Counted from the stretch's first letter, positions 287 to 54,245 are shown. The stretch is DNA of 64,000 bases from Patescibacteria group bacterium (GCA_041653675.1 JBAZEY010000002.1:12315-76314); one strand, 5' to 3'. Notes: a model not told the origin generated them from the sequence alone. Numbers and translations: made by a program.

Positions 287-416
287 CCCCGTAGTAGAAA
301 TTTGACTTGTATTTTACAATACAAATCTTAATAGTATATTAATTTTTATTATAAATAATACTTATTGCCAAAACATCTAGTCGCCGCTGACGACTTGTCA
401 AATTTTCACTACGGGG
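287..416 (-). repeat. 130-bp long-stem element, copy 1 (20-nt terminal inverted repeats CCCCGTAGT..GAC / GTC..ACTACGGGG)
   Basis: Arms at 287-306 and 397-416 are complementary apart from one conserved A.C mismatch. Same ends and same length as the copies at 12169 and 52870; the interior is unrelated. Confidence 0.8.
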
Positions 417-4964: not shown

Positions 4965-5300
4965 TTATTTTGTAAGCGCGTTTGTAATCCAGCCAACCAC
5001 CCACAAAATTAATGCTCCTAAAAATGCGGCAACAAAATTTTTGACATCAAAACCTTTAACGATTGACGAGACGAGCCATAACATCAAAGCGTTAATCACG
5101 AGCGTAAAAAGTCCAAGAGTCAAAATATTTACTGGCAGGGTCAATAAAATTATAAGCGGCCTAATCACGGCATTTACCAAACCCAAAACGAGCGCAGCAA
5201 GCAACGCCGAGTAAAAATTTTTCACGGAAATACCCGGCACGACGTAGGTTAAAAGCATAATCGCTACGGCATAAATTAGCCAACGAATAAGGATACCCAT
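4965..5300 (-). CDS. phage-holin-family / DUF360-type small membrane protein
   Basis: Four hydrophobic segments. The MGILIRWLIYAVAIMLLTYVVPGI... pattern is typical of the YvlD/DUF360 family. I prefer ATG at 5300 over the TTG at 5360 used in the ORF track. Confidence 0.6.
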   Translation of the reverse strand: MGILIRWLIYAVAIMLLTYVVPGISVKNFYSALLAALVLGLVNAVIRPLIILLTLPVNILTLGLFTLVINALMLWLVSSIVKGFDVKNFVAAFLGALILWVVGWITNALTK

Positions 5301-11984: not shown

Positions 11985-12167
11985 TTAACTAAGGTTTAAA
12001 TTTTTGCGGATTTTTTCTATCTGCTCTGCTTCTATTTTTTTTATCGCCTTTTCCAAAACTGTCCTCTGGCGAAGCGATAAATCAGCCATAATTTTAGAGA
12101 ACTTTCGATAAGCCCCTTCTGCTTTTAAAATTTTCTCTTTTATAGATAAGTTTTTTTCTTCTGCCAT
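11985..12167 (-). CDS. hypothetical small coiled-coil-like protein
   Basis: 60-aa ORF. The ATG at 12167 directly abuts long-stem element copy 2. Confidence 0.4.
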   Translation of the reverse strand: MAEEKNLSIKEKILKAEGAYRKFSKIMADLSLRQRTVLEKAIKKIEAEQIEKIRKNLNLS

Positions 12168-12168
12168 A

Positions 12169-12299
12169 CCCCGTAGTAGAACTTCTACTTATTTATGAGA
12201 TTAAATTATTTCACTATACACCCGCATTAAAATCTTCGACACCATCATCTGCTCTTCCATTTGTTCGCCGAGGCGAACTGTCGAAGTTTCACTACGGGG
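12169..12299 (-). repeat. 131-bp long-stem element, copy 2
   Basis: Arms at 12169-12188 and 12280-12299. Contains a compensatory U-A to C-G change relative to copies 1 and 3. Confidence 0.8.
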
Positions 12300-12357
12300 C
12301 ATACTTGTGGATAGATATTATATTTATCTATTTTATCATATTTTTGAAAAGATGAGG

Positions 12358-52791: not shown

Positions 52792-52869
52792 TTCAAAATC
52801 TATACAGCAAAAACACCCTGGAAAACGGGGTGTTTTTAGTCTGCTTTTTGGCGCTATTTCCCCTCTTGA

Positions 52870-52999
52870 CCCCGTAGTAGAATTTCGACTTTACTATTAT
52901 CTTTTATTGTTTCTAGATTTACGTCGCGCAATAAAGATTTTGTATTTTTCTCGTTTTATTTGGCCCGCAGAGCGGGCTTGTCGAAATTTCACTACGGGG
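52870..52999 (-). repeat. 130-bp long-stem element, copy 3
   Basis: Arms at 52870-52889 and 52980-52999. Same ends and length as copies 1 and 2. Interior hairpin GCCCGC-TCT-GCGGGC. Confidence 0.8.
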
Positions 53000-53143
53000 T
53001 TGATTTTTAATTGCCTATTCTTTTTCGTTTTGCTAAAATATAAGGGCTTAAAAGCCCGTGTTGGCTCCTCGGCTCGGAAATGTGAAACCACATTTCTCTC
53101 GCTCTACGTCGCCAATAGGGACTAACTAACACATAAAATCTAT

Positions 53144-53674
53144 ATGGGAAATTTACAAAATCCTAGAAAAAATCGCCTGTCTTGGGACGAAACTTTTATG
53201 AATATGGCGCTGATTTTGGCGCAACGCACCGCCTGCAAGTTTCATACCGCCGGAGTCGTCTTGGTTGATAATAATAAAAGAATTGTCTCGGTTGGCTATA
53301 ATGGCCCGACCGCTGGCGATGACCATTGTTTGGAAGTCGGCTGCGCCAAAGTTGACGGCGATCCTGTCACGGGAAAATTAAAACGCTGCCGCGGTGCGCA
53401 CGCTGAAATAAATAGCATTATCAACGCGCAAGACACGAGGAGGCTGGTGGGCGCGACGGTTTATACCGCGCTTTATCCTTGCTACGACTGCATGAAAGCG
53501 TTTAACAACGTCGGCGTCAAAGAAATAGTTTATTTTGAAAAATACGAACGGATAAAAACCGGCGGTGAAGGAAAAGAAGAAGAAAATGAAGCGCAGGAGT
53601 TGGCTGACAAGCGAGGAATTAAAATCAGGAAATACGACGGCCCGGTTTATTGCAACATTGATTTTACTAAATAA
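53144..53674 (+). CDS. dCMP deaminase (ComEB-type cytidine/deoxycytidylate deaminase)
   Basis: Zinc motifs HAEINSI and PCYDCMKAF. Confidence 0.85.
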   Translation: MGNLQNPRKNRLSWDETFMNMALILAQRTACKFHTAGVVLVDNNKRIVSVGYNGPTAGDDHCLEVGCAKVDGDPVTGKLKRCRGAHAEINSIINAQDTRRLVGATVYTALYPCYDCMKAFNNVGVKEIVYFEKYERIKTGGEGKEEENEAQELADKRGIKIRKYDGPVYCNIDFTK

Positions 53675-53696
53675 ATTATTGACGGAAAAATAAAAT

Positions 53697-54245
53697 ATGA
53701 TTCTCGGAATAAAAAAATTACACGAATTAGTTAAAGAAATTAATTTAGTGGAAAATTTATGCGACCGGGAAATGAATAATCCCGAGGGCGCCGGTTTTGA
53801 TTTGCGGCTCGGAGAAATTTATGAGCTTGAAGGCGACGGATTTTTAGGCGTGGAAGAACGAAACACGCCGGCCATAAAACTTGTGGCAAAAAATGAGGAA
53901 GGAAAATCTGAACAGGAAAACTCTTTTGTTTTTGAACCGGGAAAATATTATTTAGTGAAAACTATGGAAAAAGTAAACTTGCCGGTGACAGTTTCCGGAA
54001 TTATTTTTCCGCGCACCACGCTATTCCGCTCCGGCTTGGGACTTTTTAACGGCATTGTTCAGCCCGGCTACCAAGGCGAACTCACTTTCGGACTTTGCAA
54101 TCTAGGAAAATCAAATATCAAAATTTCTTTCGGCGCGCGAGTCGTGCACATCACTTTTCATGAAGTGCTGGGCGAAGGCAACCAATACCGCGGCCAGTGG
54201 CAAGGCGGCCGAGTCGCGACTGGTGGCAAAGAAGTGCAAGTGTAA
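53697..54245 (+). CDS. dCTP deaminase/dUTPase-fold protein
   Basis: GIVQPGYQGELTFGLCNLG core. C-terminal Y.GQWQGG tail. Confidence 0.65.
   Translation: MILGIKKLHELVKEINLVENLCDREMNNPEGAGFDLRLGEIYELEGDGFLGVEERNTPAIKLVAKNEEGKSEQENSFVFEPGKYYLVKTMEKVNLPVTVSGIIFPRTTLFRSGLGLFNGIVQPGYQGELTFGLCNLGKSNIKISFGARVVHITFHEVLGEGNQYRGQWQGGRVATGGKEVQV
54183..54245 (+). repeat. direct repeat DR1 (authentic 3' end of the dcd-like gene)
   Basis: CAATACCGCGGCCAGTGGCAAGGCGGCC...GGCAAAGAAGTGCAAGTGTAA. Repeated at 55141-55203 and, partly, at 54607-54642. Confidence 0.85.

Follow-up and report, generated by a model that had tools for sequence, protein, structure and literature searches.

Three loci in a 64,000-nucleotide stretch of DNA from a Patescibacteria group bacterium (GCA_041653675.1, JBAZEY010000002.1:12315-76314; the whole stretch is referred to as the window) bear the same ends around dissimilar interiors. 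This raises the question of whether such ends close an RNA structure that acts on the neighboring genes or delimit a piece of DNA that moves. An earlier note, made from the sequence alone, took the conserved ends, length, and fold as signs of a functional RNA or DNA structure, and suggested that its stem sequesters the translation start of the adjacent gene. Our preferred answer, to which we assign a probability of roughly 0.7, is that the three loci are nonautonomous, MITE-like members of a Patescibacteria-wide family of hairpin (TIR) mobile elements, whose coding relative is about 310 bp long and encodes an 88-aa GIY-YIG nuclease related to Ssn.

Three copies with common ends and a common fold

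The lineage of the window lies near Candidatus Falkowbacteria, as placed from L1 and MltG homologues, and the window holds no tRNA genes. All three elements lie on the plus strand: copy 1 at 287–416 (130 bp), copy 2 at 12169–12299 (131 bp), and copy 3 at 52870–52999 (130 bp). In copy 1, the left arm (287–306) reads CCCCGTAGTAGAAATTTGAC and the right arm (397–416) reads GTCAAATTTTCACTACGGGG. The 13-mers CCCCGTAGTAGAA and TTTCACTACGGGG occur three times each in the window—always paired, 130–131 bp apart, and in one orientation. With up to two mismatches there are 8 matches against about 0.7–1.2 expected by chance, a number that none of 100 shuffles reaches, and the matches gained by allowing two mismatches are unpaired chance ones only. 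The existence of three loci with their ends in common, as first noticed from the sequence alone, is thus confirmed.

Both strands of these copies fold with a 20-bp closing helix, with folding z-scores from −3.8 to −7.1. Positions 10–11 of the helix bear an A.C mismatch and a G.U/G.T wobble—in that order on the plus strand and swapped on the minus strand—and a short GC hairpin sits beside one arm in every copy (379–395, 12263–12278, and 52963–52977). Folding hence reproduces both the helix with its two irregular pairs and the hairpin as they had been described for all copies.

The interiors had been called unrelated, which stands within the window: they are 54–59% identical to one another against a background with a mean of 48% and a 95th percentile of 56%. 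They are not arbitrary, however, as the interior of copy 3 is 84% identical to element L055—at a nonorthologous site in another metagenome-assembled genome (MAG)—and that of copy 1 is 70% identical to element L041. Interiors shared with nonorthologous elements imply that the interior moves along with the arms and that distinct subfamilies coexist.

Target-site duplications and empty sites

A 4-bp direct repeat, which had previously been missed, flanks all three copies: CATA, CATA, and TTGA. Around copy 1, CATA is found at 283–286 and at 417–420. The left repeat reads TATG on the minus strand and contains the start codon of a 41-aa ORF (160–285), and the right one and the stop codon of the upstream gene on the minus strand (424–1017) are 3 nt apart. 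Around copy 2, the left CATA (12165–12168) is, as TATG on the minus strand, the start codon of a 60-aa ORF (11985–12167), and the right CATA (12300–12303) is followed by the native upstream region of this 60-aa gene, in which a TATAAT box lies 14 nt before the distal ATG. Copy 3 is flanked by TTGA at 52866–52869, downstream of the rplA terminator (52809–52837), and by TTGA at 53000–53003, which lies 7 nt upstream of a promoter-like site (53011–53039) preceding the dCMP deaminase gene (53144–53674). Among the 84 copies listed, about 80% bear an exact 4-bp flanking repeat, and the remaining ones show mostly 3- or 5-bp repeats or a one-base mismatch.

These repeats account for the observation that had suggested a regulatory role, namely, that in copies 1 and 2 an arm ends 1 nt before an ATG. 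The spacing is real, but it is simply the duplicated TATG: the gene strand reads TATG-element-TATG.

For copies 2 and 3, sites without the element are found in relatives. Copy 2 is absent from a strain whose YceG/MltG is 98% identical (L190) and from a more distant relative (L189). The empty site in L190 reads ...ATATAATATCTATCCACAAG-TATG-GCAGAAGAAAAAAAC... with one TATG only, and its alignment with the window is interrupted only once, by 135 nt (131 + 4), with near-identical flanks to either side. Copy 3 is absent from a sibling whose L1 is 96% identical (L186), in which 134 nt (130 + 4) are missing from the spacer between the rplA and dCMP deaminase genes. For both copies, the occupied site minus the empty site is exactly the element plus one 4-bp duplication. 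Flanking 4-bp repeats in combination with precise empty sites mark the loci as mobile DNA and not as a cis-regulatory RNA family. MITE behavior of this kind, accompanied by a matching transposase, had been named in the earlier note as evidence against its own reading. The behavior is largely what is found; as to the transposase, a protein-coding partner with the same ends does exist, but it is a GIY-YIG nuclease and not a classical transposase, and none is seen in the window.

Contigs with identical proteins all carry the elements, and several of these contigs end at or beside them. Independent assemblies of one organism stop in or just past elements (contig ends L184, L185, L181, and L182), which indicates that the repeats break short-read assemblies of CPR genomes.

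The same regions differ between relatives in other ways as well. In the spacer between the rplA and dCMP deaminase genes that also holds copy 3, a second indel of 74–75 nt relative to the sibling L186 covers window positions 53048–53121. It has inverted repeats of its own (TTGGC..GCCAA and GAAATGTG..ACATTTC), is bordered by AGGG on both sides, is unrelated to the element family, and may represent a further small element, mobile or structured. In L190 (3361–3890) and L189 (3527–4050), yceG/mltG and the 60-aa gene are separated by an extra small gene that is missing from the window (12304–12357). Gene calling gives it 127 aa on the minus strand in L190 and 108 aa on the plus strand in L189, and the extra L190 ORF has no Pfam match.

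A family spread over the Patescibacteria

A scan of one genome per species, in which both exact 13-mers were required, returned at least 79 further loci outside the window with lengths of 120–146 bp—a set that is, by construction, ascertained by its exact 13-nt ends. Essentially all hosts are Patescibacteria/CPR MAGs: Nealson-, Uhr-, Buchanan-, Portnoy-, Andersen-, and Taylorbacteria, Saccharibacteria, and Paceibacterota. A few loci labeled Gammaproteobacteria or plain "bacterium" are taken to be mislabeled or unclassified CPR bins. Single-arm matches also turned up in viral contigs; five of the six are chance matches inside coding sequence.

The constant length of 130–131 bp holds for the window but not for the wider family, whose lengths are bimodal (120–150 bp and 300–330 bp), with additional forms of 32–110 bp. 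Very short members of about 32–80 bp, which consist of two arms and a small loop, are seen at L020 1289–1430, 3439–3517, and 6426–6457, at L071 89–150, and at L001 ~5085–5140; among them is one copy nested in another, with compensatory CCCTG/CAGGG ends. Copies can also be adjacent, head-to-tail or head-to-head with one shared 4-bp repeat between them (L052 6156–6444, L025 7305–7570, and L033 7032–7187), and such tandem copies suggest that an element end with its flanking word is itself a preferred target.

Element length plus duplication covers all three residues modulo 3, and the reading frames are closed in the start-type copies tested; in-frame peptide insertion in the style of the Rickettsia RPE is ruled out by these two findings. 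Two protein families recur beside the elements. A protein of 220–250 aa that combines a sigma-70 region-4-like HTH with a LAGLIDADG-like motif is found in 4 of about 80 loci (L083 671–1351, L017, L035, and L032)—in L083 at about 130 bp from an element—and a PaaX/Cas2-like protein is likewise recurrent in 4 loci. Neither is arm-bounded, and both were rejected as partners of the family.

The closing stem is a selected structure

Conservation of the stem was assessed on 99 distinct arm pairs, taken from 130-bp and gene-bearing elements together. In this set, which was preselected for at least 17 of 24 complementary positions, standard pairs fill 93% of the cells; this value falls to 29–52% when the partner columns are slid, and slid and shuffled controls all score far below the real arm pairing. 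Compensatory double changes occur at 16 of the 20 stem pairs. The irregular pairs are nearly invariant, with A.C at pair 10 and G.T at pair 11 each retained in 97 of the 99.

Stem positions 14–20, on the other hand, tolerate all four Watson–Crick pairs. This freedom, together with the conserved mismatch, suggests that a structure is recognized and not a transposase-binding sequence. G.U/G.T pairs are rare at the variable positions and no commoner there than other mismatches; the rarity of G.T outside pair 11 fits a constraint at the level of DNA, acting on both strands, and not one on RNA. The data thus support the stem as a selected structure and not as a decayed repeat. To this extent the earlier claim of a functional structure is upheld, whereas its reading as a functional RNA is not.

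Insertion at start codons and promoter edges

Insertion is highly site-specific: the elements sit almost exclusively at the start codons of genes that lack a Shine–Dalgarno (SD) motif or at the upstream edge of promoters. Where the duplication is of the type N+ATG or N+GTG, it falls on the start codon of a long ORF. For TATG/CATA, this is the case in 25 of 27, where about 33% would be expected if all noncoding TATG sites were equal (p = 1e-10). Of 31 cases from L001–L083 and window copies 1 and 2, 17 show a −10-like TAnnnT at a distance of 5–10 nt before the distal ATG, and only one shows an SD-like motif. A −10-like box so near to the ATG and the near-absence of SD motifs indicate that the targets are probably leaderless or short-leader genes, a hint that these lineages commonly initiate translation without a leader or independently of an SD motif.

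Duplications of TTGA/CTTG form the first bases of a promoter-like −35/−10 pair in 22 of 28 cases, compared with 11% of other intergenic TTGA sites (p = 1e-16); copy 3, 7 nt upstream of its predicted promoter, is a looser case of this promoter-edge type. Just before a TTGA/CTTG duplication, GGGG or the GC-rich stem of a terminator is frequent (e.g., L015, L078, L055, L052, and L044). Such a left flank looks like the junction ...CGGGG|TTGA of the element itself and may contribute to target recognition. In the subfamilies compared by eye (e.g., four Buchananbacteria copies and the TCCAAAATTT-arm group), members keep to one target type. Both element orientations are found at start-codon and promoter-edge targets alike, and there is no orientation bias relative to the gene strand (26 versus 34) or to GC skew (28 versus 43). 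A lagging-strand ssDNA route like that of IS200/IS605 might have given such a bias.

A further target is a tRNA gene. The element at L013 764–888 splits the host tRNA-Gly(CCC) gene in the anticodon arm, duplicating C36–G39, and its interior consists of a second, distinct tRNA-Gly(CCC) gene that is intact and runs in the same direction—what looks like a self-compensating insertion.

Three possible roles of the interior were considered and rejected. As a guide to the target it fails, since interior–target similarity is no better than in shuffled pairings (p = 0.17) and only the tRNA-bearing L013 stands out. As a replacement promoter it is no more convincing: promoter-like sites in start-type interiors number seven forward and seven reverse, and the window copies show nothing convincing. 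Translational coupling through the 130-bp copies is not seen either, as the frame that begins at the distal ATG is closed at a median distance of 75 nt upstream of the proximal one.

A coding relative with a GIY-YIG nuclease

At L060 1204–1519, a 316-bp element consists of the arms enclosing only an 88-aa ORF, which fills the interior exactly. PF01541 (GIY-YIG) is the sole domain of the encoded protein, for which hundreds of close homologues exist in CPR bacteria, and three more independent genomic contexts show a GIY-YIG ORF between these arms. In a metagenome set of 80 loci that was collected by protein similarity alone, the ORF is arm-bounded in about 74, with a unit of about 310 bp. The sense of the ORF varies relative to the AG/GA asymmetry of the arms. 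The 64-kb window itself holds no arm-bounded GIY-YIG gene. Orthologues of the genes next to the GIY elements (recA/efp, ruvX, and murJ) are also absent from the window, and no empty site for the coding element was therefore obtained.

The residues Y5, Y16, G18, R26, H30, and E62, which are catalytic, are invariant in the GIY-YIG protein. Among solved structures, UPF0213 proteins and SLX1 come nearest to it, and it shares 40% identity (E = 2e-13) with a homologue that has NTS-like repeats on its flanks (L187). The latter is a 97-aa GIY-YIG gene at L187 3890–4270, between the dCMP deaminase and dCTP deaminase genes of a relative whose L1 is 88% identical. It is flanked by classic NTS/SRM-like hairpins (TGTCATTCCCGCGAAAGCGGGAATCC), and the window has a 22-nt spacer only at this place (~53674–53697). 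Both kinds of GIY-YIG element hence circulate in this lineage.

Coding elements, too, have their duplications on start codons, as in TATG|CCCC...GGGG|TATG. In ATGAA|TCCC...GGGA|TGAA, the terminal A plus TG restores an ATG, and in GGTGGA|CCCC...GGGG|TGGA, a GTG is restored. The coding element has no room for a promoter or ribosome-binding site of its own. A usable host ATG/GTG is present in 36 distinct GIY upstream regions. The mini-ORF that begins at this host codon ends 9–12 nt short of the GIY ATG in 12 of them and 21–23 nt short of it in six; in four, it runs into the GIY ORF as an in-frame fusion. This spacing, along with the lack of room for own signals, makes it appear that the coding element borrows host start signals.

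Relation to known systems

The closest likeness is to the Ssn proteins. The parts of the account by Chenal et al. (2025, PMC11893778) considered here describe single-domain GIY-YIG ssDNA nucleases that bind and cut hairpin repeats flanking their own gene, with further repeats scattered over the genome; they point out the IS-like repeat–gene–repeat layout and leave the mode of spread open. Common to Ssn with its SRM/NTS repeats and the present family are a single-domain GIY-YIG protein of about 90 aa, a gene bracketed by structured repeats, and many orphan copies. The repeats differ, though: according to the same parts of PMC11893778, SRM repeats each form their own hairpin of 20–50 nt, whereas the arms described here are not self-folding, pair together into one long-range 20-bp stem, and are unrelated to the NTS consensus CGTCATTCCCGCG..GCGGGAATC. 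The C-terminal third of the protein differs as well, and the 4-bp duplications, empty sites, and start-codon/−35 targeting seen here do not feature in those parts of the account.

In the window, the elements are short, noncoding, and multicopy, with TIRs, target-site duplications, and empty sites in relatives, which are the features of MITEs. Bacterial MITEs—such as the Correia elements of Neisseria, ERIC/IRU, RUP, and the Rickettsia palindromic elements—are noncoding, about 100–150 bp long, have TIRs and short duplications, lie in or near genes, and can fold as RNA hairpins. The present elements resemble them in size, TIRs, short duplications, and gene-proximal insertion. They differ in that the partner is not a DDE insertion sequence, that highly diverse interiors go along with 13-nt ends identical across many CPR lineages, that insertion is at start codons or −35 edges, and that the stem covaries around a fixed mismatch.

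With IS200/IS605 and REP/RAYT systems (HUH Y1 enzymes acting on ssDNA hairpins), the family shares a small enzyme, irregular hairpins that are recognized—as proposed here—subfamily-specific target words, and abundant orphan hairpins. In contrast to these systems, the fold is GIY-YIG and not HUH, the ends are mutual inverted repeats, the flanking word is present on both sides, and orientation bias is lacking. DDE elements of the IS1380/piggyBac type offer a third comparison; IS1380 has CC ends and duplications of 4–5 bp. Ends that start with CC(C), the 4-bp duplication, and apparently seamless empty sites are alike, but no DDE gene was found with the ends described here, and the coding version measures no more than about 310 bp. 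In the literature on MITEs or GIY-YIG repeats in CPR bacteria, we found no description of this family.

Alternative explanations

That the elements might be ordinary MITEs of a DDE transposon (e.g., of the IS1380/piggyBac type), with the full-length copy unsampled and the GIY-YIG gene a frequent passenger or a homing-endonuclease gene that invades the hairpin loop, is the most serious alternative, though an unlikely one. TIRs, a 4-bp duplication, and precise empty sites are the classical signature of DDE enzymes, and GIY-YIG nucleases are not known to catalyze transposition: to our knowledge, GIY-YIG enzymes are hydrolases without strand-transfer activity, and we know of no established GIY-YIG transposase. 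Yet, about 190 loci (about 1 Mb) around the elements contain no arm pair at a transposase-sized spacing and none above about 330 bp, and all-against-all clustering of ORFs from L001–L079, L083, and the window gave no enriched transposase family. A passenger would also not be expected to fill the interior of its host exactly, as the ORF does in most members (about 74 of 80) of one GIY-YIG clade, and the free stem positions 14–20 next to a conserved mismatch point to recognition of a structure.

We consider it less probable still that the family acts primarily as a cis-acting RNA, that is, as a transcribed hairpin through which the neighboring gene is regulated in its translation or stability, with mobility secondary. 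In favor of it are the very stable, covarying helix, which in copies 1 and 2 stops one nucleotide short of the AUG, and the GC hairpin, which in the examples listed of start-codon copies is gene-distal whatever the orientation of the arms. Elements in both orientations relative to genes do not agree with it, however, nor do the many copies upstream of −35 boxes, which need not be cotranscribed with the gene, the copy inside a tRNA gene, and the close relatives that have the same gene without the element. G.U pairs are not favored over other mismatches at variable positions, and Rfam offers no family: the whole window gave nothing at the gathering score, and a permissive threshold around copy 2 gave only a 16-bit chance match (E = 0.29). 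On these grounds—orientation, −35-upstream and tRNA sites, and empty sites in relatives—sequestration of the start codon is not supported as the function of the stem. Adjacency to the ATG is a property of the target site; the element may still affect how the gene downstream is translated, as a consequence and not as the reason for which the family exists. Folded imperfect palindromes that serve a tyrosine recombinase, that is, integron attC or Xer/dif-module sites, share with the elements conserved ends, a variable center, a conserved unpaired base, and one gene-like cargo (the tRNA). They are a very improbable explanation, as the ends CCCCGTAG/CTACGGGG lack the GTTRRRY/RYYYAAC core, neither arrays nor a nearby integrase are found, and cassette arrays do not account for 4-bp duplications and for single insertions scattered over gene starts.

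A possible mechanism

For the MITE-like mobile family with its GIY-YIG coding relative, we infer the role of the enzyme and the route of transposition from sequence comparison. The arms would extrude as a DNA hairpin or cruciform, and the GIY-YIG protein would recognize the folded arms, with the A.C/G.T irregularity as part of the recognition feature, and would cut the base of the stem with a 4-nt offset. Excision and insertion might then be completed by host repair or ligation, and the 130-bp copies would be moved in trans. A coding element that lands on a host start codon would use the transcription and translation start of the host, and the duplication would give the host gene its start codon back beyond the element—in part from the element's own terminal base in the "T...A" subtype. 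The flanking 4-mer may be a true insertion duplication or a carried word matched at the target in the style of IS608.

Specificity for start codons and −35 elements is not obviously explained by a protein of 88 aa. It could partly reflect purifying selection in very compact genomes. Selection of the element for its own expression, selection at the level of the host, and a physical preference, e.g., for melted or underwound promoter DNA, may all be sources of it.

A more far-reaching proposal, which we regard as tentative and at slightly less than even odds, is that of a new minimal transposon class: an autonomous unit of about 310 bp, whose single protein, the Ssn-like nuclease, would recognize its own hairpin, insert on start codons or transcription start regions with a 4-bp duplication, and borrow the promoter and start codon of the host, accompanied by phylum-wide 130-bp derivatives, some of which would carry compensating cargo such as a tRNA.

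Implications

Single-domain GIY-YIG proteins (Ssn/COG2827-type) and hairpin repeats are widespread. The present family leaves clean footprints—duplications, empty sites, a coding unit barely above gene size, and orphan copies—which make the multiplication of such repeats testable, and they suggest that a GIY-YIG nuclease can drive transposon-like spread. In practical terms, the elements can mislead the calling of gene starts in CPR genomes, and the nuclease–hairpin pairs could extend the set of ssDNA tools proposed for Ssn enzymes. For the biology of these bacteria, borrowing host expression signals while rebuilding the start codon is a rare strategy, with a bearing on the expression of CPR genes that lack an SD motif.
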